Assembly: GCA_963665745.1 (NCBI GenBank)
Contig: OY762443.1
Span: 2,182,301 to 2,246,300, forward strand
Direction of reading: 5' to 3'
Source: Dehalococcoidia bacterium
Lineage (GTDB): Bacteria; Chloroflexota; Dehalococcoidia; Lucifugimonadales; VXLM01
Length of the DNA stretch: 64,000 bases
The notes under the pieces are model-generated. The model did not search any database and had not been told where the DNA came from. It saw nothing but the letters and a program-made list of their open reading frames with translations. Of the stretch, positions 2,283 through 59,272 are shown piece after piece; within the stretch, counting starts at the first letter, position 1, and each line of letters starts with the position of its first letter. The position numbers were made by a program, and so were the translations under genes.

Positions 2283-3053
2283 CTATGCGCCCAGGTACGC
2301 GTCTATGACGTTCGGTCTGCTCAGCACTTCATCGACCTCCCCCACGGCGAGCAGGGTGCCGCTGTCCAGTACGAAGAGATGGTCGGACAGTTCGCGAACG
2401 ATATCCATGTTGTGTGAGACGAAAATGATGGTGTTGCCCTGCTCTCGCATGTCCTTCAGTATCGCCTTGACCCTTTCCAGCATCTGCGGGAAGAGACCCG
2501 CGAAGGGTTCGTCGAATAGGTAAATGCCAACGTCCATCGCCATCGCGCGTCCGATCTCCAGCAGCTTGCGCTGCCCGTAGGAAAGGTCCATCGCCATGGC
2601 GTCCCGCTTCTCCCACATTCCGACGCTCTGCAAGATGCTCTGGGCCTTCTCCTTGTGTTCGGAACTGGTTCGCTCGAAGAGCGCGGGGAGGAAGCGACGT
2701 TCGGTCAAGGTGACCATGATGTTGTCCCATACGGTGATCTGGTCGAAGAGACGCACCTCCTGGAAGGTCCTCGTAATGCCGTGGCCGGGCGTCTCGTGCG
2801 CCTTCACTACGCGGAGTCCCACGCCGTCGATGACGACGATTCCCTCATCGAGCGGCAGCATCCCGCTCAGCAGATTGATGAGGCTCGACTTTCCCGATCC
2901 GTTCGGTCCGACGATGCACGTGATCCACTCCCGGAAGATGGAGATGCTGAGTTGGTCCACGGCCTTTACCGCGCCGAAGTGCTTTGAGACGTCCTTCGTT
3001 CTCAGAACGAAGACTTCGTCGAGGTCGATCAGGCCCGGTCGATCCGCAGTCAT
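2283..3053 (-). CDS. livG: Branched-chain amino acid ABC transporter ATP-binding protein (LivG type)
   Basis: Walker A GPNGSGKSS, LSYGQRKLLEIGRAM and YLFDEP. The ATG at 3053 forms an ATGA overlap with the livM stop. The Arg/Pro-rich 104-aa upstream extension in the ORF track was rejected. Confidence 0.85.
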   Translation of the reverse strand: MTADRPGLIDLDEVFVLRTKDVSKHFGAVKAVDQLSISIFREWITCIVGPNGSGKSSLINLLSGMLPLDEGIVVIDGVGLRVVKAHETPGHGITRTFQEVRLFDQITVWDNIMVTLTERRFLPALFERTSSEHKEKAQSILQSVGMWEKRDAMAMDLSYGQRKLLEIGRAMAMDVGIYLFDEPFAGLFPQMLERVKAILKDMREQGNTIIFVSHNMDIVRELSDHLFVLDSGTLLAVGEVDEVLSRPNVIDAYLGA

Positions 3054-4105
3054 AGCTTGAACCTCCCCACAAGGCCCTGTGGCCTGAACAGCATGAGGAC
3101 CACCAGCAGGATTCCGAGGACGACCTGCCGGGCCTGACCGACGTACTCGCTGGGCAGGAACGGTATGAAGCGCATCCCCTCTTCGAGCAGGACGAACACG
3201 ATAGCGCCGAGCAGGGAGCCCCATATCGTCGCCAGCCCCCCGAGAATGACGATGCAGACCAGGAGCATCGACTCCAGCAGGATGAAGGAGTTGGGGTCGA
3301 TGAATGTCGTCCAGCTTGCGAACAAACCGCCTGCCAGTCCCGCCATCATGGCCGAGATGACCCATACCGCCAGTTTGAAATGCGTCACCTGATAGCCGAA
3401 GACCTCGGTGGCCTGCTCATCCTCTCGGATCGCGGTGAGCACCCGTCCGAAGGATGATGTCACTATGAACCATGAGATCAGGACAACGAGGGCGAGGAAG
3501 GCTACGACGAGCGCGAGGAACTGCAATTCGCCGTCGAATACCCATGTCCCGATCTCGGGCCGGTCAATCTCATGGATGCCGAAGGCCCCCCTCGTGACGC
3601 TTCGCCAGTTCAGGAAGAGATTGAAGGCGATGATGGCGAAGCCGAAGGAGACGAGGACGTATATGTCGTCCCTGAACCGGTTGAATACGATGCCCACCGC
3701 CAACGCAATGAGGCCCGCCACGAGTATGCCGACGGGCAGGGCGGCGAAGAAGGGCCACCCGAACGTGGGGATGGCCTCGGTGCGAAGCTGCTCGTATGCC
3801 GCATCCGAAGTGAGAACGGCAACCGTGTACGCGCCGATTCCGAAGAAGCCGACGTGACCGACCGACAGCAGTCCCGTGAACCCCACCACCAGGTTCAGAC
3901 TTACGGCCAGAATCGCCCAGATGGCGAAGACGGTACCCACCGTTATGGCGAATCCCGTCCCCTGCCAAATCATGAACACCACCGCCGAGCCGATGATGAA
4001 CAGGTTTGCCCACAGTTCCACGTTGCCCCTGGCGAACTGAAGGAACTCCCTCGGCGAGCGAGCGAGCCTCAGCATGTCGGCGATGGCAGCTGTGTCGATC
4101 TGCAA
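3050..4105 (-). CDS. livM: Branched-chain amino acid ABC transporter permease (LivM type)
   Basis: Polytopic membrane protein with a LivM-like C-terminal half (FGRVLTAIREDEQATEVFGY). Operon context supports the call. Confidence 0.85.
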   Translation of the reverse strand: MQIDTAAIADMLRLARSPREFLQFARGNVELWANLFIIGSAVVFMIWQGTGFAITVGTVFAIWAILAVSLNLVVGFTGLLSVGHVGFFGIGAYTVAVLTSDAAYEQLRTEAIPTFGWPFFAALPVGILVAGLIALAVGIVFNRFRDDIYVLVSFGFAIIAFNLFLNWRSVTRGAFGIHEIDRPEIGTWVFDGELQFLALVVAFLALVVLISWFIVTSSFGRVLTAIREDEQATEVFGYQVTHFKLAVWVISAMMAGLAGGLFASWTTFIDPNSFILLESMLLVCIVILGGLATIWGSLLGAIVFVLLEEGMRFIPFLPSEYVGQARQVVLGILLVVLMLFRPQGLVGRFKL

Positions 4106-4109
4106 AGCC

Positions 4110-5492
4110 CTACTCCCTCGGCAAGAGGCCCTTGGGCCAGAACGATAGGAAGAGGATGAGGACCAAGAACGATATGACGTCCTTCCACTCCCCGGCGAGA
4201 TCCCAGATGCCGAACTGCTCGATCATGCCCAGGGCGAATCCCCCCACGATTGCGCCGTACAGGTTGCCGATTCCTCCGACCACTGAAGCTATCCAGCCCT
4301 TCAGCAGGAGCAGGAGGCCCATCCTCGGCTGAATGGCCGTGTCGTGGCCGCTCAGCAGCCCGGCCATGGCCGCGAAGACCGCGCCGATGAAGAACACGAT
4401 CGCGATGATGACGGTGGTGTTTATTCCCACCACCTTCGACACCTCTTCGTCGTCGCCGATCGCCCGCACGGCCTTGCCGAAAGAGGTCATTCTCAACAGG
4501 AACAGCAGGAAGACGAATCCGGCGAGTGACACGCCGATGGTGAAGACGTTGAACCCCTTGATGTTGCTGCCCCAAATCGTCCATGGAGCGCTGCCGAAGG
4601 CCTCTGGAAGCGGACGCGGGTTGCTCTCGAAGATGATGGAGGTCGCGGCGGTGATGGCCAGAAGGATACCCAGCGTGGCTACCAGCATGATGAGGGGCGA
4701 CCTCGCACGCTCGCGCATGTACACGTAGAGACCCCGGTAGAATGCTACGGCGACGATCCCCGCCATCAGGCACGACACCCCCCAGCTGACGTAGAGGTTC
4801 GACCCGGGAGCGTTGGCGACAAGGAACGCGCAGTACGCTCCCAGCGCCACCCCGATGATCCCTGCCACCACCATGAAGGGCGCGGCGCTCGATGTCGGAA
4901 GTGCAAGTCGAGCTCCGCGGAACAGGGCCCAGCCCGCGATAAACGCCACCAGGACGCCTATCGCCGGGCTAAGGATGACATGTGTGTCATCCGTGAAGCT
5001 CAGAACGATGCCCATGTAGACCCCCGCGCCGACGGCCAGGAGTCCTCCGGCTGCGTACAGGACCCTTCGGTCGAAACGGGGCCGCAGCTTGTGGAAGAAT
5101 GCCTCGTAGAGCGCCCACGCGACCACTCCTGCCGTCACGGCGGCAAGCATGGCGTTCACGTAGGGGTTCGTGTAGTCGTTGCCGCCGAAGCCGTCCTGCG
5201 ATCTAAGGTAGAAGACGCCGTAAGCCCCTATGGCTGCCGCCGCCCCGTAGTACAGATCGAAGAACCATACGGTGCTGTAGACGATGGTAAAGCCCATCGC
5301 GAGGAGGGCGTAGATGGCGCCTACGGCTAAGCCGTTGAAAGCGAACTGTACGGCTTGGTCGGGAGACTCGGTGATCTTCCAGGCGATGTAGCCGATCACT
5401 GCGACGGTCAGCACAGTCGCCAAGATCCTGTGGCCGTCACCACCCGGCAACAGACGGCTCCACCAGGCGAACCTCAGTCTCTCGAGACTCAT
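4110..5492 (-). CDS. livH: Branched-chain amino acid ABC transporter permease (LivH type) with an internal extra-TM insertion
   Basis: LivH-like start NGLAVGAIYALLAMGFTIVYS and C-terminal half GKAVRAIGDDEEVSKVVGIN. At 460 aa it is longer than the usual ~300 aa. Confidence 0.8.
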   Translation of the reverse strand: MSLERLRFAWWSRLLPGGDGHRILATVLTVAVIGYIAWKITESPDQAVQFAFNGLAVGAIYALLAMGFTIVYSTVWFFDLYYGAAAAIGAYGVFYLRSQDGFGGNDYTNPYVNAMLAAVTAGVVAWALYEAFFHKLRPRFDRRVLYAAGGLLAVGAGVYMGIVLSFTDDTHVILSPAIGVLVAFIAGWALFRGARLALPTSSAAPFMVVAGIIGVALGAYCAFLVANAPGSNLYVSWGVSCLMAGIVAVAFYRGLYVYMRERARSPLIMLVATLGILLAITAATSIIFESNPRPLPEAFGSAPWTIWGSNIKGFNVFTIGVSLAGFVFLLFLLRMTSFGKAVRAIGDDEEVSKVVGINTTVIIAIVFFIGAVFAAMAGLLSGHDTAIQPRMGLLLLLKGWIASVVGGIGNLYGAIVGGFALGMIEQFGIWDLAGEWKDVISFLVLILFLSFWPKGLLPRE

Positions 5493-5633
5493 CTACGTAT
5501 AGGGCCTCTGTCTAGACTTCCCCGCGGTGCTGTTTGAACGGCGTGGAATATCTGGCGTCTTTTGCGGACGGCGTTACCCGGTCCACGCGCCATGTGCACT
5601 CATGCCAACGGCACTGAGACCGGGAATTGGAAC

Positions 5634-6821
5634 CTACTCAGTGGGTGCGCTGCCCCAGTATTTGAAGCCTTGATTATCTTCGGTCCTTTGAGACGTCGGT
5701 AAAACCTCCACCACCTCATTGGAAAGACCAACAACCTCGCCTTTGTCGTCGAAGCTGTAGTTATCTCCGATGGCGCCGCTCCAGGTAATGTCGTATAGGC
5801 AGTCCCTGAATCCGTCCGCGTCTTGGTCGTCGTCGGTCTTCTTGAGGCACTCCGCCGCGATGTACACGTCGTCGTAGGCGGACCCGAGGAACCATGCCAG
5901 CGTGATGTACCCGTAGCGGGTCCTGAAGTTAGAGAGGAACTCCTTGCCCCTATTCGTGGTCAGATCGGGACTGGGGATGACGCCCTTCACCCCGGTAGCG
6001 GCGTCGCCCGCTATCTCCAAGGCGGTTGTCCCCGTGACTACCGACTCCCCGTAGATGGGGCCGTTGAAGCCCAGTTCCCGTGCCTGCTTGACGATGGTGC
6101 CGCCGGTGAACTCTGACTGAGCGGCTACGTGGAGCGCGTCGGGCGTGGCGTCGAGCAGCTTCGTAAGCTGACTCCTGAAGTCGGTAACGTCGGATGCGTA
6201 ACGTTCCTCGGCGACCACCTCTCCGCCACGCTTCTCGAACTGTGCGACCGTCGTCCGCCTCACTCCCTCCGCGTAGTCGGTCGTCTCGTTGATGGTCGCC
6301 AGCTTGCGTATGTCGTCCGCCCACAGCAGGTTGCCGGTGTCGACGCCCAACTGGTTGTCGTTTATGGCGGTGCGGAAGATGTAGTCGCCAGCCTCGGCGA
6401 TGTCGGGGTTCGTTGCCGACGCGGAGAAGAGTACCACACCGTCAGTCTCGGCTCTAGGCGCGGCTCCAAGCATGGCGCCGCTGCATGATGTTCCAAGGAT
6501 GATCTTCACTCCGTCCACATCAGTCAGCTTGTTATAGGCAGTAATCGCGTCTTGGGCTCCGCATTTCGAGTCTTCGACGATGAGTTGCAACTTGCGCCCG
6601 TTGATGCCGCCGGCGGCGTTAATCTCGTCTGCCGCCAACTGCTTGGCCTGAACGATCACCGTACCATAGCTCTCACCCGGACCCGTAACCGAGTCCATCA
6701 CTCCAATCCGAAACGGTTCTCCGTCTCCTTCATCCTCATCATCTCCACAAGCCACAACCACCGACGCCAGAACCGCCAGCAATCCTATCGCGACAATCCG
6801 TTTCCACGAGAATAAGCGCAT
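5634..6821 (-). CDS. ABC transporter substrate-binding lipoprotein, LivJ/LivK (type 1 PBP) family
   Basis: Signal peptide plus lipobox (VVACGDDE). Leu/Ile/Val-binding-protein-like core FRIGVM..GG..GRKL..VEDSKC. Confidence 0.85.
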   Translation of the reverse strand: MRLFSWKRIVAIGLLAVLASVVVACGDDEDEGDGEPFRIGVMDSVTGPGESYGTVIVQAKQLAADEINAAGGINGRKLQLIVEDSKCGAQDAITAYNKLTDVDGVKIILGTSCSGAMLGAAPRAETDGVVLFSASATNPDIAEAGDYIFRTAINDNQLGVDTGNLLWADDIRKLATINETTDYAEGVRRTTVAQFEKRGGEVVAEERYASDVTDFRSQLTKLLDATPDALHVAAQSEFTGGTIVKQARELGFNGPIYGESVVTGTTALEIAGDAATGVKGVIPSPDLTTNRGKEFLSNFRTRYGYITLAWFLGSAYDDVYIAAECLKKTDDDQDADGFRDCLYDITWSGAIGDNYSFDDKGEVVGLSNEVVEVLPTSQRTEDNQGFKYWGSAPTE

Positions 6822-24413: not shown

Positions 24414-25571
24414 GTGAAGTCATCCGACGCAGTAGAGTCCCTGAGGCGCAGAGGCAGCGTCTACGAGCGGTACGGCGTTCGCCCGATCATCAACGGCAAC
24501 GGTACTCAGACCATCCTCGGCGGTTCCATCATGGAGCCCGAAGTCGCGGAGGCGATGGCCGAGGCCAGCCGTACGATGGTCGTGCTCGAAGAGTTGAATG
24601 AGGCGGCCGGGCAGCTCATCGCCCAGCACACCGGGGCCGAAGCGGGACTCGTCACGAGCGGGGCGGCGGCCGGGCTAACCCTCCAGGCCGCATCCGTGAT
24701 TGCCGGGGACGACCCCGACAGGGTCGCTCTGCTTCCCGAAGCGGCCCATGATCGGAACCGTATCGTCATCAAGAAGTCGCACGACAGCGAGTTCACGCAG
24801 GCGTGGCGACAGGGCGGCGCGCGACTGGTCTGGGTCGGCAACAATGACACGTGTCACGACTGGGAGATCGAGTCGGCCATCAGCGGCGAGACGGTGGCTT
24901 TGGGGTTCATAGCCTCGCGGTGGCATCCCGACTCATTTGAAGGTCTATCGAAGTTTGCCGAAATCGCGCACGGTCACGGACTCCCCCTCCTCGTCGATGC
25001 CGCCGCTATGCTCCCGCCTGCGGAAAACCTTCGCCGGTTCATCGAACACGGCGCGGACCTGGTCTCCTACAGCGGCGGCAAGGCGATCAAGGCTCCGCAG
25101 TCAACGGGCATACTCTGCGGACGCGCCGACCTGATCGCTGCCGCCAAGCTGAACGCCAGCCCGCACTACTCCATCGGTCGCCCCATGAAGGTTGCCCGCG
25201 AGGAGATCGTCGGCCTGATGGCCGCCCTCGACCTGTACGTCCGGCGAGACCACGACGCCGACATGCAGCGCTGGTTCAGCGAGTGCAGGACCATCATCGA
25301 CGCGGTAATCGAGATACCCGGCGTCACGGCCACAGTCGAGCAAGACGACTGGCTCAGACCGGTCCCGGAAGTCTCGATCGCATTCACATCCGAATGGCGC
25401 GGCAGGTCGGCTGAAGAGATAGTCAATGCACTCGCCGATGGCGATCCGCCCATCATCATAGAGGCCAGCCGACGCGACGACGAGGACATCTTCATCAACC
25501 CGCACGGCCTCATGCCTGGCGAGGCGGAGCTGATCGCCGAGCGACTGCGGACGGAGTTGGAGGCCGGGTAG
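24414..25571 (+). CDS. SelA-like / DgaE-like PLP-dependent enzyme
   Basis: SGGKAIKAPQSTGIL (PLP lysine region) and overall SelA-related-protein length and pattern. Confidence 0.65.
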   Translation: MKSSDAVESLRRRGSVYERYGVRPIINGNGTQTILGGSIMEPEVAEAMAEASRTMVVLEELNEAAGQLIAQHTGAEAGLVTSGAAAGLTLQAASVIAGDDPDRVALLPEAAHDRNRIVIKKSHDSEFTQAWRQGGARLVWVGNNDTCHDWEIESAISGETVALGFIASRWHPDSFEGLSKFAEIAHGHGLPLLVDAAAMLPPAENLRRFIEHGADLVSYSGGKAIKAPQSTGILCGRADLIAAAKLNASPHYSIGRPMKVAREEIVGLMAALDLYVRRDHDADMQRWFSECRTIIDAVIEIPGVTATVEQDDWLRPVPEVSIAFTSEWRGRSAEEIVNALADGDPPIIIEASRRDDEDIFINPHGLMPGEAELIAERLRTELEAG

Positions 25572-25599: not shown

Positions 25600-26109
25600 T
25601 TACCGTCTTTGAGACATAAGCTCCGGGCACAAGAACATGACTTCCACGCCGTGGTTGCCTAACGGTTCGTGGTGATGCCACCAATCCGTGTCCGACGCAT
25701 TGAGTACCACGGGATTACTGCCGCTAGCCAGTGCTACGGCAACGAACTTGCGGTCATCTCGGTCGAACGACGCGAGGCGCGGATCGTCGGGGAACTCCTC
25801 GAATCCACGATCTTCGTGAGGAGTCACGGGAACCATTCGGCAGTATCGCTCGTTTGTCTGGCTTTCCCAAAGCCATTGAATGAAGAAATCACCGTATCCA
25901 GGTTGGCCTGAGAGACTGAGATTGTTCCGATACTCTTCAAGGATGAGGTACTTGTCATCCAGCAGGAGAAGGTATTTCTCACCCTCTATTATCTTACGTA
26001 GCGTGTCAGTGCATGTGGACACGCACGATTGCCCCGCTTGCTCGGTCATACCATTGGCTACGACGGCGACGTTGGTGTCCACTACGACACCCGCCTTCTC
26101 CACGTTCAC
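25600..26109 (-). CDS. PIN-like nuclease domain protein (third gene of the candidate defence cassette)
   Basis: The acidic residues are placed as in PIN domains: VVVDTNV, ILEEY, FDRDDRKFVAVA, NASDTDWW. The GTG at 26109 overlaps the ATPase stop as GTGA. Confidence 0.55.
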   Translation of the reverse strand: MNVEKAGVVVDTNVAVVANGMTEQAGQSCVSTCTDTLRKIIEGEKYLLLLDDKYLILEEYRNNLSLSGQPGYGDFFIQWLWESQTNERYCRMVPVTPHEDRGFEEFPDDPRLASFDRDDRKFVAVALASGSNPVVLNASDTDWWHHHEPLGNHGVEVMFLCPELMSQRR

Positions 26110-27470
26110 TCGGCGTTCCTCCGCCTTCTCAGCGTGGCATCGCTCATGGCGGCGATCTCGCCAAGTTGGTCCCGGAAGAAATCCGTCGGCCAATTCGCAA
26201 TGTTCCCGTAGGAATTAAGTTCAAGCGGCGTGAGACTGGAGCTGCGACCGCCCGCCGAGCAGAAGAACAGGCCGACATCCTCTGCTGAAATCGTCTCTTC
26301 GGCAACGCGGCGCTGAAGTCTGCGAAGAAGGTGCTCGCTATGACTTTCCAGCAAAATTTGCACCTTCCGCTTCTTCCATGCGTCGATGAGGACGTCCGCG
26401 AGGCCGGACTGAATGGCCGGGTGCAGGTGAATCTCGGGCTGCTCCAAGATCACTGTGGAACCCTCCGGAACGTAGAAGCACAGTACGAGCACAGGGAGAA
26501 TTTGCGAGACGCCGAAGCCCACATCAGTGATCAGCACCTCCGACGCTCTCACGGACTTTCTAACCCTAACCTCGAACACGGGACTGCCTTCGGCGAGCCG
26601 CTCGACCCGGAAGTCGTGGATCAGATCGAGTTCCTTAAGCCACTGAGCCACATACTCCTCAAGGGTGACGCGAGGTCTACCTCGACCCCGGCCAATCGTC
26701 TCTCCCCGTTCTCGGGACGCCAGTATAGCGTCCACCGCATATTCGCCTGCTTGCCCCACGTCGATCGGTTGAGCCCCTGTCCATGTGTATCTGCGTTCAG
26801 GGTGAGCGCGCAGCGGGCCGAGGTAATATAGGCCTCCTAGGCGTTCTTCCAGCGCGAATTCGAGATCCGAGAGGAACCCCGCGTTCGTGAAATTCGCGCG
26901 CACTTGGTCGGGAAACCCGTAGCACTTGACTGGAGGAAGTGTAGCCCAGGGCCGTCCTCTACTCCGCTCGAACTCGAACTTCGTCTCCTCTTGGAACAGG
27001 CCATGATTTCCTTTAGAGTTTCGGCCCAGGCCGAACACGGCATCACCTACGCGATACGACATCCGCTCCACGGTCAGCGACTTTCTCGATTTGCTCCCCA
27101 CCTCATGCGAGGCGACTTCGAATCCGATACGTGCGTCTTCAACCACTGTGCGTCCGTCCACATTGGGAACCTTAAAGGGCTTCTGTTCTTCCGTTTCCCA
27201 GTCAAGTGAAATCTTTAGAGTGTTGCCGGAGTCATGTCCGTATACGACACTCTTGAAGTCACCCAAATCCACGGGCGTCGTTCTGTCACCGAAGTGGAAG
27301 ACGATTCCACGGTCGGACGACTCGGCCGTCTGCTTCAGGAGGAGCAGCGCTTGAATCAGGCTGGTCTTCCCAGAACTGTTCGCGCCGAAGATGCCGGTGA
27401 TAGGCTTGAGTGCGATGTCCCCGGTGTTCTTCCATGACTTGAAGTTTTCCAATCGCAGTCGTGTCAACAT
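26106..27470 (-). CDS. ABC/OLD-type ATPase (AAA_15/AAA_21-like with a DUF3696-like C-terminus)
   Basis: LENFKSW..., Walker A GANSSGKTS, Walker B-like VILEQPEIHLHP and H-loop LESHSEHLL. Confidence 0.8.
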   Translation of the reverse strand: MLTRLRLENFKSWKNTGDIALKPITGIFGANSSGKTSLIQALLLLKQTAESSDRGIVFHFGDRTTPVDLGDFKSVVYGHDSGNTLKISLDWETEEQKPFKVPNVDGRTVVEDARIGFEVASHEVGSKSRKSLTVERMSYRVGDAVFGLGRNSKGNHGLFQEETKFEFERSRGRPWATLPPVKCYGFPDQVRANFTNAGFLSDLEFALEERLGGLYYLGPLRAHPERRYTWTGAQPIDVGQAGEYAVDAILASRERGETIGRGRGRPRVTLEEYVAQWLKELDLIHDFRVERLAEGSPVFEVRVRKSVRASEVLITDVGFGVSQILPVLVLCFYVPEGSTVILEQPEIHLHPAIQSGLADVLIDAWKKRKVQILLESHSEHLLRRLQRRVAEETISAEDVGLFFCSAGGRSSSLTPLELNSYGNIANWPTDFFRDQLGEIAAMSDATLRRRRNAE

Positions 27471-27490
27471 GAGAATTTACCTGTGTTAGA

Positions 27491-28042
27491 TCATTTACGC
27501 CGCATATGATTCAGGAGGTGTGAAGACGCATCGCTCTTAAAGACCATTTTCCCACATTCATCACATTGTACTCTCATGCGCCGTCCCCTATCTCCCATAG
27601 GCCGTCTCCTATGCAGATCGTTGCAGTATGGGTTCCCCTCGTCGTCCTCACAGCGGTCATCCGTAGGATTGATGATCTTGCGGCAATCCCCATAAGAACA
27701 GCGCTCAACTTCTGGTAGGTCGCTCTGGCAATGAGGACATGCCGTTGCTAGTTCATGAACTTCTTGGATGCAGTGAGGACATTGCCGAACATCAATCTCT
27801 TCCCTACGGCGTCCACTACCTGCACTCGGAGTGATCGTTGTACTGGTTGAAGATCGACGGGGTTTGTTGGAAGAGCGATCTTCACTCGGCAACCCGATAA
27901 GCACCAGTAGGGCGAGGATACCGAAGATGAGTCCCAGAAAGAACCATGAGCCTCCACTGCGACCCTTCTCCCCGGCCAGGTATGCGCAAAAGGCTCCGAA
28001 GATCAAGGCGTAGGCCAGAAACAGTACTATCAAGAATTCCAT
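27491..28042 (-). CDS. Membrane-anchored protein with multiple zinc-ribbon (CxxC) motifs
   Basis: Two N-terminal TM helices, then CPHC..CPHC, CSYGDC and CDEC cysteine pairs. Its stop lies 20 nt upstream of the ATPase gene. Confidence 0.6.
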   Translation of the reverse strand: MEFLIVLFLAYALIFGAFCAYLAGEKGRSGGSWFFLGLIFGILALLVLIGLPSEDRSSNKPRRSSTSTTITPSAGSGRRREEIDVRQCPHCIQEVHELATACPHCQSDLPEVERCSYGDCRKIINPTDDRCEDDEGNPYCNDLHRRRPMGDRGRRMRVQCDECGKMVFKSDASSHLLNHMRRK

Positions 28043-28178
28043 AGCTACTCTCTTGCCTGCGGCCTACTTGTGCGGGGTTGAAGTGTATCATAGCGGCGTA
28101 CCCGTTTCGTGGGTGGAGATGTATTATGTTGTGGTACCGGTCGTTATTTCGTGACCGCAAAATGGTGATATTGCCAAT

Positions 28179-29597
28179 ATGCCCATAAAGTTCGGAACCG
28201 ACGGTTGGCGGGGTGTCATCGCCGAGGACTTCACCTTCGACAACGTTCGCGTGTGCGCCCAGGGGACGGCGGACATGCTGGCGGCGAACGGTGACGGCCG
28301 GGGGGTCGTCGTGGGCTATGACACCCGGTTCGCGTCGGAGCGGTTCGCGGCTGCTGTGGCCGAAGTGTTCGTGGGAAACGGTCTCCATGTCCTCCTCGCG
28401 GATCGGCCAGCGCCCACTCCCGCCGTTGGGTTCAACTTGGTCGCCCGGGACGCGGGCAGTGGGGTAGTTATAACGGCGAGTCACAATCCCCCTGAATGGA
28501 ACGGCTATAAGTTCAAGCCCGATTACGGCGGCAGCGCATCGCCTGAGATCGTAGCCGAACTCGAACGTCACGTTGCCAATGCCGAACGGCAGGGGCAGTT
28601 CAAAGCCACCTCGCTTGCTCAGGGCGTCAAGAGCGGGCTTGTGGAGTACTTCGATCCGGAGCCTCCGTATCTGGAGAATCTTGGGCGACTTGTCGATCTC
28701 GACGGGATCCGGCGGTCCGGTCTGCAGGTCGTGGTCGATTCGATGCACGGCTCCGGCGCCGGATACTTGGCGCGCCTCGTTTCCGGCGGGAGCACGTCAG
28801 CAGTAGAGCTTCGTGGTGAGAGGAACCCAAGTTTCCCGGGGATGACGCAGCCCGAACCGCTCCCCCACAACCTCGCAGGGCTTATTGAGGAAATGGAGGA
28901 GTCCGATGCCGACGTTGGCCTTGCAACGGACGGTGATGCCGACCGTCTCGGAGTCGTCGATGCCCGCGGTCGCTTCGTGACGACCCTCGAAGCGTTCGCC
29001 CTGCTGTGCTACTACCAACTGGAGGTTCTCGGCAATCGCGGGCCTCTGGTGCGGTCTATCACCATGACCAGCATGATCGACAAGCTGGGAAAGGCATACG
29101 GCGTCCCGGTGTTCGACACGCCCGTCGGGTTCAAGCACCTGGGGCCGGTGATGATGCGAGAGAACGCTCTCACGGCGGGCGAGGAGAGCGGCGGGTACGC
29201 CTTCCGGGGCAACATCCCGGAACGCGACGGCATCCTGAGCGGGCTGATGATACTCGACCTCATGGTCAGGACGGGCAAGACCGTGTCCGAACTGCTCGCC
29301 GTCCTGAAGGATACCGTCGGCCCTCACCACTATGACCGTCTCGACCTTCATTTCGACGCCGCGGAACGCGAGGCCATTGAGCGACGGGTCGGTTCCGCCC
29401 AGCCTCCAAAACTTGCAGGACGACCTGTTGAACAGATCGACACGAGGGACGGCTATCGGTTCGTACTGCCGGAAGGCTACTGGGCGCTGGTGCGCTTCTC
29501 GGGCACCGAACCGCTCCTTCGCATCTACGCCGAGGGTGACTCCCCCGAAATGGTACAGTCTCTTCTGACGGAAGTGCGTTCCTTGGCAGGCGTGTAG
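28179..29597 (+). CDS. Phosphoglucomutase/phosphomannomutase family protein
   Basis: FGTDGWRG, active-site TASHNPPEWNGYK and metal loop DGDADR. Confidence 0.85.
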   Translation: MPIKFGTDGWRGVIAEDFTFDNVRVCAQGTADMLAANGDGRGVVVGYDTRFASERFAAAVAEVFVGNGLHVLLADRPAPTPAVGFNLVARDAGSGVVITASHNPPEWNGYKFKPDYGGSASPEIVAELERHVANAERQGQFKATSLAQGVKSGLVEYFDPEPPYLENLGRLVDLDGIRRSGLQVVVDSMHGSGAGYLARLVSGGSTSAVELRGERNPSFPGMTQPEPLPHNLAGLIEEMEESDADVGLATDGDADRLGVVDARGRFVTTLEAFALLCYYQLEVLGNRGPLVRSITMTSMIDKLGKAYGVPVFDTPVGFKHLGPVMMRENALTAGEESGGYAFRGNIPERDGILSGLMILDLMVRTGKTVSELLAVLKDTVGPHHYDRLDLHFDAAEREAIERRVGSAQPPKLAGRPVEQIDTRDGYRFVLPEGYWALVRFSGTEPLLRIYAEGDSPEMVQSLLTEVRSLAGV

Positions 29598-36787: not shown

Positions 36788-36864
36788 GGCCCCGTGGTGT
36801 AGCGGTTTAACATACTGCCCTGTCAAGGCAGAGATCGCCGGTTCGAATCCGGTCGGGGTCGCCA
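36788..36864 (+). tRNA. tRNA-Asp (GTC), CCA encoded
   Basis: Cloverleaf readable by eye. Acceptor GGCCCCG/CGGGGTC, anticodon stem CTGCC/GGCAG with loop CTGTCAA, T-arm GCCGGTTCGAATCCGGT, 3' GCCA. Confidence 0.9.
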
Positions 36865-55900: not shown

Positions 55901-57724
55901 GTGGTATTGTGTACGTTGCCCGTAGGCCCACTATGCTCTAGTACCCCGGAGACGACTTTGGCGACGACATCTTCCGGCAATCCCCGTTACGAGGCGCATG
56001 AGAGTCCGTCCTATCGGGCCTCTCTGGGCTACGGCGTGCAGTTCAGCCTGATTGCCTCGGCCACGCTGCTGGTGACGCCGGTGATCGTGGCGAGCGCGTC
56101 GGACATAGGCGAGTCCTACGTGACCTGGATGGTCTTTGCCTCCCTGGTAGTCGTGGGCCTTTCGACGCTGATTCAGGTCTATCGGATCGGGCCAGTCGGC
56201 GCCGGGGCCGTCCTTCCGATGTTCACCGCGGCCTTCGCCATCCCGTTTTGCATCACCGCGGTGGTGGACGGAGGGCCGGCGACGCTGATGACCCTGGTGG
56301 TCGTCACCGCAATAATCCAGATCGTGATCTCCAAGTGGCTGTTCCTTCTGAGGCGCGTCGTCACGCCGATAGTGGGCGGGACGATAATGATGATACTCTC
56401 GATCACCCTGGCTTCCGTCGTCTTCAGCCTGTTGGACGAAGCGTCGCAGGAAAATCCGACAGAGGCGACGCTGACCGCGCTGGCCACCACGGTAATCGTG
56501 GCGGCGCTCATGCTTCGCGGCTCAGCCATGCTGCGCCTGTGGGGACCGCTGATCGGGATAGTCGGCGGCTGCATCGTCGCCTTCGCCCTCGGAATCTACG
56601 AGTTCGACAGGGTGATCGATGCCGCATGGATCGGGTTTCCGAGTGAGGTGCCCGACTTGGGTCTCGACTTCGGCATTCACTTCTGGACGCTGCTTCCGTC
56701 GTTCCTGTTTCTCGGCCTGATCAACTCCATTCAGGTGAATGGAGCCTCTATCACCAACCAGCGGGTCGCTTGGCGCGAGGACCGAGCGATAGACTTCCGA
56801 GAGGTGCAGAGGGCCTTGGCGGGAGGAGGCGTGAGCAACCTTCTCGCCGGGGTGGGAGGCACGGTGCCCAACGTCGTCAATCCGGCCGGCGCTTCGTTCA
56901 TCCAGACCACGGGTGTTGCCTCCCGCAGGGTCGGGTACTTCATCGGCGGCATTCTGCTGGTGATAGCGTTCCTCCCCAAGGTGTCCGGCCTCATCGCCAC
57001 CATACCCGGTCCCGTGATGACGGGATACCTCATTATGGTGACGGGGAGCCTGCTTGTTGACGGCGCGAGGACGGTCTTCCAGGGCGAGCAAGACCGGCAG
57101 AAGATTGCGGTCGCGGGGGTCTGCTTCTGGATTGGCGCGTCATTCCAGTTCGGGTTGTTCCACCTGCCCGACTTCGGCCCCGTGTGGGGAGCGCTGTTCA
57201 AGAGCGGTATAACGACCGGGGGGATCGCGGCGGTGGTGATGATCCTCTACCTGGAACTTACGAACCCGCGCCGTATGCGGTTTCAGTCGAAGCTCCACAT
57301 CGACTCGCTGCCGGAACTGCAAGAGTTCATCGCAAAATTCGCCGACCGCAGGGGCTGGGGCGCCGAGATGAAGGACAAGCTCAGCGCCGTTGCGGAAGAG
57401 ACTCTCCTGACGCTGGCCCCGCTGGACTTGACATCGTTCGACCTGGACGAAGAAGACGACGACGAGGATGAGGAGGATGGCCGACAATTGATCGTCTTGG
57501 CGTCCAGCGAAGGCCAGGCGGCGGACTTGGAGTTCATTGGCGGAGGGAACCAGGAGAACATCGAGGACCAGGTCCGCCAGCTCCAGGAGCTTGAAATCGA
57601 GACTCCCGCAGAGCATGAAATCTCGCTGCGGCTGCTTCAGAACTACGCCTCGTCCGTGAACCACCATCAGTACTCCGGCACGGACGTCATCACGCTTCGA
57701 GTCGAGCCTCCCAGCGCGAGTTAA
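55901..57724 (+). CDS. NCS2-like transporter paralog with the same C-terminal domain and an acidic linker
   Basis: Collinear with the 49040..50782 product. DLDEEDDDEDEEDG linker. An alternative TTG start at 55958 lies behind GGAG. Confidence 0.65.
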   Translation: MVLCTLPVGPLCSSTPETTLATTSSGNPRYEAHESPSYRASLGYGVQFSLIASATLLVTPVIVASASDIGESYVTWMVFASLVVVGLSTLIQVYRIGPVGAGAVLPMFTAAFAIPFCITAVVDGGPATLMTLVVVTAIIQIVISKWLFLLRRVVTPIVGGTIMMILSITLASVVFSLLDEASQENPTEATLTALATTVIVAALMLRGSAMLRLWGPLIGIVGGCIVAFALGIYEFDRVIDAAWIGFPSEVPDLGLDFGIHFWTLLPSFLFLGLINSIQVNGASITNQRVAWREDRAIDFREVQRALAGGGVSNLLAGVGGTVPNVVNPAGASFIQTTGVASRRVGYFIGGILLVIAFLPKVSGLIATIPGPVMTGYLIMVTGSLLVDGARTVFQGEQDRQKIAVAGVCFWIGASFQFGLFHLPDFGPVWGALFKSGITTGGIAAVVMILYLELTNPRRMRFQSKLHIDSLPELQEFIAKFADRRGWGAEMKDKLSAVAEETLLTLAPLDLTSFDLDEEDDDEDEEDGRQLIVLASSEGQAADLEFIGGGNQENIEDQVRQLQELEIETPAEHEISLRLLQNYASSVNHHQYSGTDVITLRVEPPSAS

Positions 57725-57862
57725 GCAACCGTAAGCTCCTTCGGGCCGGATTTCGATAGGGAGAAGCACATGACTCGAACAGACGAGGGTTCTCGCGATT
57801 CATCGAAGGTTGGACAAGGTCAGCCCTCCCCTAGGGTCAAGCAAAGAAGGGACGTAGGAACC

Positions 57863-58090
57863 ATGACTTTAGACGAAGCAACCGCAATCCTCCGTGAGAT
57901 GCGCAAGAACGCGCCCTATGGAGAGGTCGGTATACAAGCCATCTTGTTTGGTATCAAGTACCGCGAACAACTTGAACACATGAGCCTTGCTGAGCTTTCC
58001 CGCCAAGTGGGGGGCGGCCCAGAAACCTGTAAGGTCGAGTTAGAGTACGGTATGAAACTGGCGCAACACGTGGACCTCAGGCGGGATTGA
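57863..58090 (+). CDS. Small hypothetical protein, 'LFGIKY' family (paralog of 20053..20322)
   Basis: MTLDEATAILREMRKN...ILFGIKYREQL aligns with MDISDAAALLKDMYKE...PLFGIKYAKEL. The ATG at 57863 is preferred over the ATG at 57770. Confidence 0.45.
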   Translation: MTLDEATAILREMRKNAPYGEVGIQAILFGIKYREQLEHMSLAELSRQVGGGPETCKVELEYGMKLAQHVDLRRD

Positions 58091-58200
58091 AGACCATGTG
58101 AACAATGGCAACGGCCCTCACGGTTAAGGGCCTTCTACTCGGTAGGCCGAGCTCCGTGCTCGCCTCAGTTACGGGTGCACCGAATACTGCACAGCTCATC

Positions 58201-59052
58201 TTACCAAACTCTCCTTTTCGGAGTGTACCCCAATGACCAGAACGTGTAGTTCATGTGGACTTGAGGTCGGGGTCCAGCTGGATAAACTTGTATGGCCGGG
58301 ATCTCAGCTAGCTTGTCGAACTTGAGAGCGACTCCGTCTGGATATGTTTGGATGTCGAGCGTTTCTTCTACCTCAAGAACTTTGTTCGAGAGAATGAGAA
58401 TAGTATACGTGTCCAACTGTGATACATCTGCCCCTCGCTCAAACTTGAGGCACCACAACTCAAAACCGATCTCGGCCATGCCCCACATGAGCGAGACCTC
58501 AGTACGCAACCTGGGGTTAAAAATTTGACCATATCTCTCCAGCCATATTCCAGTGGGTACTCCGAAGCTCGCAAATTTGAAGAAATCCGCATCAAGCTTC
58601 CGAATCCCGTTAGCATCAACCTTCCAATTTCCGACCCGCCTATGACTACACTGAGTCATGAACTTGAGTACGTCTCGTCGTACATTCTCGTCGAAGTAAA
58701 TCCAAGACCTCGTCGGTTCCGGATCCCACAACAGATCGACGAGTTCGACGAACTCCGGTTTGAACTCTGGAGTCGGCACAGGCGTGGGTATCAACGTTGG
58801 GATGGTCGTCACTCTGCCGGTACGCGTTGGCGTTGGTGTCGGAGTAAGTCTCCAGTCGCCTCTACTCATAACGGAATCGCCGGGTTGAGTGGCAACAGGT
58901 GCAGACGTTGGCGTGGGAGTCGGTGTCAGGGTTGGAGGCTCTATCCAACCGTCCGGAGTCGGAGTGGGAGTGGAACTTTCGTCCCCAACGTTACAAGCCG
59001 TCACAATCATCACTCCGAGCACAACTCCAAAAGTCGCTAAGAACCCCTTCAT
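58201..59052 (-). CDS. Hypothetical lipoprotein with a Thr/Pro-rich linker
   Basis: Signal peptide plus lipobox (IVTACNVG), TPTPTP-type linkers and an unassigned C-terminal domain of about 170 aa. The region has lower GC than its surroundings. Confidence 0.5.
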   Translation of the reverse strand: MKGFLATFGVVLGVMIVTACNVGDESSTPTPTPDGWIEPPTLTPTPTPTSAPVATQPGDSVMSRGDWRLTPTPTPTRTGRVTTIPTLIPTPVPTPEFKPEFVELVDLLWDPEPTRSWIYFDENVRRDVLKFMTQCSHRRVGNWKVDANGIRKLDADFFKFASFGVPTGIWLERYGQIFNPRLRTEVSLMWGMAEIGFELWCLKFERGADVSQLDTYTILILSNKVLEVEETLDIQTYPDGVALKFDKLAEIPAIQVYPAGPRPQVHMNYTFWSLGYTPKRRVW

Positions 59053-59272
59053 GCCCTCTCCCGTTGTTTTGATTCACCCTGCTTATAATTATAGAAAACG
59101 AGCGTAGCCTCCGCGACCCCCGTCAGTTGGCCTAGCTAGTTCGCGCTGGCGATCTCTATGTCCGCAAGGCGGTTGGCGTCGTGCTCTCGCTTGGCGGTGA
59201 GGGATCGGATTGGATGGGCAGACATAGTTGCTCGCGCTCATTGGTCTGTCCCCAATAGTAGGTGTTGGAGGG

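Follow-up and report, generated by a model that had tools for sequence, protein, structure and literature searches.

A HEC-03 ATPase–PIN gene pair in a Dehalococcoidia genome is accompanied by a probably phage-derived membrane zinc-ribbon gene

Several anti-phage systems place a nuclease effector under the control of an ABC ATPase of the AAA_15/AAA_21 type, with a Toprim effector in PARIS (AriA/AriB) and AbiL (AbiLii), an HNH effector in Septu (PtuA/PtuB) and a UvrD-helicase effector in Gabija (GajA/GajB). HEC-03, the Hma-embedded candidate 3, consists of an ABC-ATPase and a VapC-like PIN protein and is included in PADLOC-DB v2 (Payne et al., bioRxiv 10.1101/2024.01.29.577857). A representative of the system, a homologue other than the one studied here, protected Escherichia coli from phages and needed both genes to do so; the HEC-03 strains were kept uninduced because induction with IPTG seemed toxic (bioRxiv 10.1101/2024.01.29.577857). 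Embedding in a helicase-methylase-ATPase (Hma) system was the context of the discovery and is not demanded by the PADLOC model. In the three-gene system Menshen (NsnA-NsnB-NsnC), NsnA is a sensor with ParB-DUF262 and ParBDB domains, the ATPase NsnB is predicted to bind its partner's PIN-like domain through a DUF3696 tail, and that partner, NsnC, combines an inactive PIN-like N-terminal domain with a separate C-terminal nuclease (PMC12065111).

We analyzed a window of 64,000 nucleotides from a Dehalococcoidia bacterium (contig OY762443.1), in which the initial annotation had singled out a low-GC cassette of three tightly packed minus-strand genes between two housekeeping genes (Table 1). The open reading frames and the sequence agreed with this layout, including the 20-nt gap and the GTGA overlap, and the flanking genes matched PF03841 and all four phosphoglucomutase domains. 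The cassette has a GC content of 0.554, lower than the 0.617 of the window as a whole. The open reading frame of the PIN gene was listed as 25600..26193(-), and its length of 169 aa counts from the GTG at 26109; the GTGA at 26109-26106 makes this start overlap the ATPase stop, and a GGAGGA stands about 8 nt 5' of the GTG. Every motif that had been quoted was found in the translations: LESHSEHLL and the Walker motifs in the ATPase, VVVDTNV, ILEEY, FDRDDRKFVAVA and NASDTDWW in the PIN protein, and CPHC, CPHC and CDEC in the zinc-ribbon protein.

Table 1. Features of the cassette and its surroundings (positions in the window)
Feature	Position	Strand	Description
SelA-like flanking gene	24414..25571		PF03841, E 1.2e-9
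HEC-03 PIN-like effector gene	25600..26109	(-)	169 aa, GTG start
HEC-03 ATPase gene	26106..27470	(-)	454-aa ORF
DUF3696 helical tail	26154..26291	(-)	ATPase C-terminus, residues 394-439, Pfam DUF3696
Walker B region VILEQPEIHLHP	26418..26453	(-)	ATPase residues 340-351
Walker A GANSSGKTS	27360..27386	(-)	ATPase residues 29-37
Spacer, zinc-ribbon stop to ATPase ATG	27471..27490	(-)	20 nt; no terminator found by scan
Zinc-ribbon gene	27491..28042	(-)	183-aa ORF; membrane multi-zinc-ribbon protein
Divergent intergenic region, zinc-ribbon gene/phosphoglucomutase gene	28043..28178	.	136 nt
Phosphoglucomutase flanking gene	28179..29597		All four PGM domains

The ATPase and PIN genes are clearly a member of HEC-03, an already catalogued two-gene anti-phage system. 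The ATPase matched the PADLOC model PDLC04148 with an E-value of 4.5e-152 (505 bits; residues 1-451, model positions 1-453 of 458) and the PIN protein matched PDLC04147 with an E-value of 3.6e-37 (residues 8-164, model positions 3-154 of 159). The ATPase corresponds to HEC-03A in the paper, while the PADLOC model that it matches is named HEC-03B. These matches bear out the reading of the pair as a module of the anti-phage type in which an ABC/OLD-type ATPase is joined by a PIN-like protein; since both models are matched over their full length, the proposal of an undescribed system falls, the pair being HEC-03, which is in PADLOC-DB v2 and has been validated experimentally as a two-gene system. 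An existing model thus covers two of the three proteins, and the zinc-ribbon protein is covered by none of the PADLOC defence models (best E-value 0.048). No NCBIfam equivalog was found for any of the three, the only matches being to the N-terminal P-loop and far under the cut-offs.

In 78 of 80 homologous loci, drawn from GTDB and spread over many phyla, the gene that immediately follows the ATPase encodes a PIN homologue, and the 4-nt start/stop overlap recurs in loci L001, L084, L087 and L089. The linkage expected of the cassette is strongly supported for the PIN gene; for the zinc-ribbon gene it holds in one small Dehalococcoidia clade only, the gene preceding the ATPase in a single GTDB locus of the 80 (the contig of L001). 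A DUF1156 Hma-type methylase adjoins 19 of the 80 loci; the window pair lies outside any Hma system or defence island, its neighbours being the SelA-like and phosphoglucomutase genes. On plasmids of Azotobacter and Aeromonas, a gene of the RNA ligase family is found downstream of the HEC-03 pair.

The assignment of the ATPase to the AAA_15/AAA_21/DUF3696 type was confirmed by Pfam, with all three matches above their gathering scores (1e-22, 6.4e-21 and 3.5e-8, respectively). Among the other PADLOC models, NsnB matched with an E-value of 1.6e-62, the HEC-03 profile scoring far higher, and weaker matches were obtained to AriA (3e-24), GajA and AbiLi. G29, N31, S32, S33, G34 and K35 of the Walker A motif and L342 to P351 of the Walker B region are invariant in the family alignment (A1). 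The Walker B dyad of ABC ATPases is D-E as a rule, and its replacement here by the invariant E343-Q344 suggests, from the sequence, an ATP-binding switch and not a fast hydrolase. A PDB sequence search with the ATPase profile found nothing beyond the N-terminal part of an OLD-family ATPase (6p74), and a search of phage records gave only partial matches.

In the PIN protein, D11, E59, D116, D119 and D140 are invariant (alignment A2), and D11, E59, D116/D119 and D140 are candidate catalytic residues. The AlphaFold (AF2) model is confident (pLDDT 92) and has the conserved acidic residues at strand ends and helix starts, as in PIN domains. The top matches of a fold search against the PDB were PIN domains, among them the SMG6 PIN domain, VapC, PAE0151 and PRORP/HARP, and Mycobacterium tuberculosis VapC toxins were among the best structural matches. 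The modeled protein is a PIN fold on modest scores: Foldseek probabilities were 0.87-0.99, but the best E-value was 3e-3 and none reached 1e-3, and PIN_3, the sole recurrent Pfam match (14 of 32 members), was under its gathering score in every member. A PDB sequence search with the PIN profile gave noise only, neither this search nor that with the ATPase yielding a solved structure of a close relative, and neither Pfam nor PADLOC matched a Toprim, HNH or helicase domain in this partner.

The model of the zinc-ribbon protein confirmed the two transmembrane helices followed by CxxC pairs, with helices at residues 2-25 and 30-50 (pLDDT 85-92) preceding the Cys-rich modules; over the whole protein the model is uncertain, with a pLDDT of 69 and a pTM of 0.29. 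The helices are followed by a disordered linker rich in Ser/Thr/Arg, and the modules comprise a CPHC-x10-CPHC ribbon, a C-x4-C...C-x9-C..H module and a C-terminal C2H2-like beta-beta-alpha finger. Pfam Zn_ribbon_3 matched at 3e-5, under the gathering score, and the family alignment (A3) has 36 invariant columns. The N-terminal half (residues 1-112) matched the PHROGs family phrog_8436 with an E-value of 1.6e-16 over profile positions 1-90 of 110. Both share two transmembrane helices and the first CPxC...CPxC ribbon; unlike phrog_8436, the window protein and its close relatives adjoin HEC-03 and not prophage lysogeny modules. The window protein and 48 close relatives carry C-terminal zinc modules that are extra to phrog_8436, consisting of one to three repeats of CSYxxCxKxIxPTDxRCEDDEGNPFC or a C2H2-like finger, and in some of them a C-terminal transmembrane helix. 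The family is small: it comprises 49 clusters, whereas the ATPases number at least 7,991 and the PIN proteins 1,714. In scans of JGI metagenomes and IMG/VR with the zinc-ribbon alignment, every relative recovered was distant, with 28-58% identity confined to short stretches, and none adjoined ATPase-PIN genes. A small transmembrane open reading frame with two CxxC pairs, 5' of the ATPase in a cyanobacterial locus (L069), had no Pfam match, was unlike the window zinc-ribbon protein and was dropped.

Using the related loci, we followed the gain and loss of the three genes. The ATPases linked to zinc-ribbon genes form a single clade, and the trio was found at three different chromosomal sites. 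Seven trios are intact (the window, L001, L003, L084, L087, L114 and L115), with a gap of 16-30 nt between the zinc-ribbon gene and the ATPase. L004 and L005, and likewise L003 and L088, differ solely in the zinc-ribbon gene, their ATPase-PIN DNA being about 96% identical: the gene has been lost from L005 and L088 with the pair intact, and L088 retains a 28-aa remnant. Conversely, the ATPase-PIN pair has been lost in L085, L086 and L116 with the zinc-ribbon gene kept, and an ATPase stub remains beside it in L086 and L116, where the deletion breakpoints differ; L002 is a further locus with the gene but no pair. Outside the window, 11 zinc-ribbon homologues were examined, and 10 of these share their site with HEC-03 genes or remnants of them; 11 further homologues are on contigs equal in size to contigs with ATPase or PIN matches. 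The zinc-ribbon gene appears to be a lineage-specific accessory that is dispensable for the pair.

The base composition at third codon positions (GC3) is 0.52 for the zinc-ribbon gene, 0.67 for the ATPase and 0.63 for the PIN gene, and 0.74-0.81 for the flanking genes. All three cassette genes are under purifying selection, with dN/dS of 0.02-0.39 (zinc-ribbon), 0.13-0.28 (ATPase) and 0.08-0.46 (PIN), several of the underlying dS values being saturated. The divergent intergenic region is presumably the seat of the cassette promoter; it contains no sigma-70 consensus, and a scan for promoters and terminators found nothing beyond the expectation from shuffled sequence. The cassette borders showed no meaningful direct or inverted repeats, no integrase is among the neighbouring genes, and the only tRNA, at 36788, is some 9 kb distant. 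Among the syntenic relatives seen, no empty site between the phosphoglucomutase and SelA-like genes was found, each holding at least a remnant.

Compared with described systems, the window pair shares with HEC-03 the order of ATPase then PIN gene on one strand, the tight or overlapping junction, the ABC-fold ATPase and the conserved PIN acidic residues. It differs in its position between housekeeping genes instead of within Hma or a multi-gene system, in its Dehalococcoidia-type host genome and in the upstream membrane zinc-ribbon gene, which is absent from both model and paper. With Menshen, it has in common an NsnB-homologous ATPase with a DUF3696 tail and a noncanonical Walker B dyad, a PIN-like partner and a three-gene order with a variable first gene. 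However, a ParB-DUF262 NsnA is missing, the upstream gene giving only transmembrane helices and zinc-ribbon matches, and the PIN protein is a single domain of 169 aa with D-E-D-D-type acidic residues and no C-terminal nuclease domain. PARIS, Septu, Gabija and AbiL share the control of a nuclease by the ATPase, but their effectors are not of the PIN type and the window ATPase scores far higher with the HEC-03 profile than with any of theirs. VapBC also has a small PIN-protein effector; its VapB-type antitoxin is replaced in the window by a 454-aa ABC ATPase.

We consider it likely that positions 25600-27470 are a free-standing, horizontally acquired HEC-03 and that the upstream zinc-ribbon gene is a lineage-specific accessory derived from phrog_8436. 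Membership of the family, conservation of the gene pair and the presence of PIN-type acidic residues in a confidently modeled, PIN-like structure can be taken as established, while the PIN substrate, the trigger of the ATPase and the architecture of the complex are modeled on related systems. Taking the predicted NsnB4-NsnC2 complex as a guide, we infer an ATPase-PIN assembly in which the NsnB-like ABC ATPase would keep a small PIN-domain RNase inactive, probably via the DUF3696 tail. On infection, the ATPase would sense a phage cue and free or activate the nuclease, which would then cut RNA and halt the infection or the cell; the association with an RNA ligase family gene fits RNA as the target of the effector. 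The zinc-ribbon gene probably stems from phrog_8436, a phage family whose members are small membrane proteins with zinc ribbons; a single joining event in one Dehalococcoidia clade would have linked it to the pair, with which it then moved, neither being needed for keeping the other. The gene is probably cotranscribed with the pair, and its product might act as a modulator or membrane sensor or as an independent exclusion-type protein.

The role of the zinc-ribbon protein can be read in two further ways. The gene may be of phage origin and independent of HEC-03, with which it would have in common no more than a small foreign island and a transcript; a membrane protein of the superinfection-exclusion type is one example. 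We give this reading a little less than an even chance. The match to phrog_8436, the relatives carried by IMG/VR viral contigs and the persistence of the gene without the pair in four loci point this way, as do two relatives in prophage settings, one flanked by a CI-like HTH repressor and a serine recombinase (L092) and the other by a Peptidase_S24 repressor and a tyrosine integrase (L093). However, phrog_8436 has no known function, an exclusion role is mere analogy from prophage gene position, and the long-tailed subfamily with the extra zinc modules is nearly restricted to HEC-03 sites. In the other reading, the zinc-ribbon protein would be the sensor or membrane anchor of a true three-component variant, occupying the gene position of NsnA in Menshen, whose gene order has been described (PMC12065111). 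In its favor, 10 of 11 homologues are at sites of HEC-03 genes or remnants and 11 more are on size-matched contigs. Each of the seven intact trios has the gene on the strand of the ATPase and 16-30 nt 5' of it, the occurrence at three unrelated chromosomal sites indicates that the trio moved as a unit, and purifying selection acts on the gene; with its constant spacing and joint relocation, the protein could be a true third subunit in its clade. Against this stand the sufficiency of two genes for HEC-03 in E. coli, the lack of the zinc-ribbon gene beside more than 99% of ATPase homologues, the very recent natural deletions sparing one part or the other, the distant relatives that never adjoin ATPase-PIN genes and the disparity in GC3 between the gene and the pair, and we regard a three-component system as rather unlikely.

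A different possibility concerns the pair itself, whose main role in the window host could be that of a selfish module, a toxin-antitoxin or addiction system, and not immunity. Its VapC-like PIN protein, the apparent toxicity of IPTG induction that left HEC-03 strains uninduced, its position alone between housekeeping genes and its fast turnover by gain, loss and replacement would all be consistent with this. The measured phage-defence phenotype of HEC-03 requires both genes, though, the DUF1156 Hma-type methylase recurs beside homologous loci and the ATPase is unrelated to VapB antitoxins, making an addiction module improbable in our judgment.

Returning to the HEC-03 reading of the pair, the analysis does away with a false lead, since HEC-03 already names this ATPase-PIN design, which has been both catalogued and validated and thus does not make a new family. 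The sole new element is the phage-derived membrane zinc-ribbon gene that accompanies the pair in one group of Dehalococcoidia. The locus is a free-standing HEC-03 far from the discovery hosts and from the Hma context, and different lineages attach different third genes to the system, upstream for the zinc-ribbon gene here and downstream for the RNA ligase gene on the plasmids. The trio, pair-only and zinc-ribbon-only alleles at one chromosomal site form a natural comparison for the function of the accessory, and the same alleles may also inform how HEC-03 senses infection, a question left open by the original study (bioRxiv 10.1101/2024.01.29.577857). More tentatively, and with considerable doubt, HEC-03 in one Dehalococcoidia clade might have recruited a phage-derived membrane zinc-ribbon protein as a third working part, tethering or gating the ATPase-PIN assembly at the membrane or sensing phage entry. 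If true, this recruitment would represent a membrane-coupled, Menshen-like sensor-transducer-effector form of ABC-ATPase defence.

The three minus-strand ORFs of the cassette, the 20-nt spacer separating the zinc-ribbon gene from the ATPase gene and the GTGA overlap of the ATPase stop with the PIN-like start were recovered from the ORF list and the sequence as the initial annotation had described them, together with all motifs quoted for the three proteins and the SelA-like and phosphoglucomutase genes as neighbors. The PIN-like ORF reaches a TTG at 26193 in the mechanical ORF list, and the GTG start is preceded by GGAGGA. The low GC content was also confirmed: the cassette has a GC of 0.554 (0.617 in the window) and its genes a GC3 of 0.52–0.67 (0.74–0.81 in neighboring genes), and it is compositionally foreign. 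A border scan found no repeats, tRNA or integrase marking its borders, and a terminator scan no terminator between its genes.

Features of the cassette, of the window around it and of homologous loci
Feature	Position or locus	Strand	Description
Zinc-ribbon gene	27491..28042	minus	ORF, 183 aa
ATPase gene	26106..27470	minus	ORF, 454 aa
PIN-like gene	25600..26109	minus	ORF, 169 aa read from GTG
Walker B dyad	26439-26444	minus	E343-Q344 of the ATPase
pVip gene	54809-55681	minus	290-aa radical-SAM protein
Low-GC patch	54400-56400		holds pVip gene
Lowest-GC patch	57600-59200		GC 0.52-0.54
HTH_73 protein	57770-58090		in lowest-GC patch
283-aa ORF	58201-59052	minus	in lowest-GC patch; no Pfam or PADLOC match
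Intact trio	L001, L003, L084, L087, L114, L115
Zinc-ribbon gene with ATPase stub	L086, L116		stub of 74-75 aa; deletion breakpoints differ
Zinc-ribbon gene with adjoining pentapeptide-repeat gene	L085		site holding the trio in L084
Zinc-ribbon gene alone	L002		metabolic operon
Trio site 1			between pgm and SelA
Trio site 2			between adh_short/Asp_protease and BNR gene
Trio site 3			between Peptidase_S58 and 2-Hacid_dh
RNA ligase family gene	L105 9927-10619		Azotobacter plasmid
RNA ligase family gene	L106 7928-8629		Aeromonas plasmid
RE_HindIII	L088 1-821		within a few kb of cassette relative
Type ISP N6_Mtase/Eco57I gene	L089 10029-11362		within a few kb of cassette relative
Zinc-ribbon relative	L092		between CI-like HTH repressor and serine recombinase
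Zinc-ribbon relative	L093		between Peptidase_S24 repressor and tyrosine integrase

The ATPase and the PIN-like protein, proposed earlier as parts of an undescribed system, match the two HEC-03 models of PADLOC: the ATPase hits PDLC04148 with E 4.5e-152 over positions 1–451 of 458, and the PIN-like protein nearly the whole of PDLC04147 with E 3.6e-37. The pair is thus a new member of a known and validated system, while a PADLOC search found no defence model covering the zinc-ribbon protein. The assignment of the ATPase to the ABC class held, with Pfam AAA_15, AAA_21 and DUF3696 all exceeding gathering scores. HEC-03 was defined as an ABC ATPase and a VapC-like PIN protein embedded in Hma systems; in Escherichia coli, a representative requiring both genes brought the plaquing of at least two phages down by orders of magnitude and was kept without IPTG induction, which appeared toxic (10.1101/2024.01.29.577857). 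In the preprint, HEC-03A is the ATPase and HEC-03B the PIN protein (10.1101/2024.01.29.577857); PADLOC-DB reverses the names, with PDLC04147 (PIN) as HEC-03A and PDLC04148 (ATPase) as HEC-03B.

The PIN assignment of the third protein is supported by its predicted structure. AlphaFold modeled the protein with confidence (pLDDT 92.1, pTM 0.88), and the model's best match in the PDB is the PIN domain of SMG6 (2hww; E 3e-3, probability 0.99), along with the PIN domains of Mycobacterium tuberculosis VapC (7vwo, 5sv2), PAE0151 (2fe1), PRORP and HARP, with TM-scores of 0.42–0.58 and none reaching E 1e-3. D11, E59, D116, D119 and D140 are invariant in the PIN alignment; in the model they lie where strand 1 ends, in the helix that follows strand 2, at the beginning of helix 117–128 and just past strand 134–137, which we read as the usual PIN layout. 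Of the Pfam families, only PIN_3 was hit repeatedly, in 14 of 32 members (best E 7.7e-4, all below threshold). Like the HEC-03 paper, we accept the 169-aa protein as a PIN domain, though a divergent one.

Among 80 loci from GTDB genomes, retrieved with the alignment of ATPase homologues and spanning Chloroflexota, Acidobacteriota, Planctomycetota, Cyanobacteria, Proteobacteria and other phyla, a PIN homologue lies directly downstream of the ATPase in 78, and one of the others is cut by the contig end. The pair is strongly conserved, as the expected linkage demanded. A DUF1156 methylase neighbors it in 19 of the 80 loci, often abutting the ATPase start; in L015, L017, L021, L022, L036 and other loci, a methyltransferase gene of 960–1000 aa at about 3000–6000 ends at or overlaps that start. 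This neighborhood is the Hma embedding in which HEC-03 was discovered, whereas the window copy is free-standing and has no restriction-gene neighbor like those in L088 and L089. On two plasmids, genes for an "RNA ligase family protein" (70% identical to each other) directly follow the HEC-03 pair, which in L105 matches PADLOC with E 2.7e-132 and 9.2e-28; such a third gene is absent among the 80 GTDB loci, and the association may point to RNA as the target and to a role in repair. The window itself contains a second, known defence gene, matching prokaryotic viperin (pVip) models of PADLOC with E 1e-89.

The ATPase is homologous to Menshen NsnB (E 1.6e-62) and shares its DUF3696 tail. Its Walker B dyad, invariant in 22 homologues, reads E-Q in place of D-E; the NsnB dyad is E-N. 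A Q at the catalytic Glu position prevents hydrolysis in other ABC ATPases, and the invariant dyad suggests slow hydrolysis, with the ATPase possibly serving as an ATP-binding switch. A PDB sequence search returned no structure of a close relative of either protein. In AlphaFold 3 models of an NsnB4–NsnC2 assembly of Menshen, the NsnB tail abuts NsnC's PIN-like domain (PMC12065111). By analogy, the ATPase would restrain the PIN nuclease through its DUF3696 tail and, on infection, release or activate it.

The zinc-ribbon gene belongs to a small family (49 clusters, 45–100% identity). The anticipated linkage stood in part: the gene lies upstream of the ATPase in only one of the 80 GTDB loci (L004). 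A neighbor-joining tree groups the zinc-ribbon-linked ATPases in a single clade, within which L005, L088 and L089, which lack the gene, are nested. L004 and L005 differ by exactly this gene, their ATPase–PIN DNA being 96.6% identical, and so do L003 and L088, the latter retaining a 28-codon remnant. We read the gene contexts of 11 homologues outside the window; eleven other homologues lie on contigs equal in length to those of listed ATPase or PIN matches. The trio occupies three unrelated sites, and the zinc-ribbon gene also occurs without an intact pair. In L085 (5741–8107), an opposite-strand 788-aa pentapeptide-repeat gene replaces the pair present in L084 (5680–7574) with the zinc-ribbon gene kept; the site acts like a small hotspot of variation. 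These distributions are explained most simply by a single gain, relocation of the modules together and recurrent loss of one module or the other.

Residues 1–112 of the zinc-ribbon protein, comprising two TM helices and the first ribbon, match the phage family phrog_8436 (E 1.6e-16), and distant relatives occur on viral contigs and in lysogeny modules, with no ATPase–PIN genes near them. The HEC-03-linked subfamily carries extra C-terminal zinc modules in variable number; in the alignment (e.g., P0014, P0017, P0019, P0026–P0030) these appear as one to three tandem CSYxxCxKxIxPTDxRCEDDEGNPFCxxxH modules, for which no named domain was matched. A third TM helix forms the C-terminus of some members; the window protein ends in a C2H2-like finger instead. 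The gene is under purifying selection. It is an accessory restricted to one clade and appears dispensable; a true three-part variant seems rather unlikely. The zinc-ribbon gene may modulate HEC-03 or act on its own.
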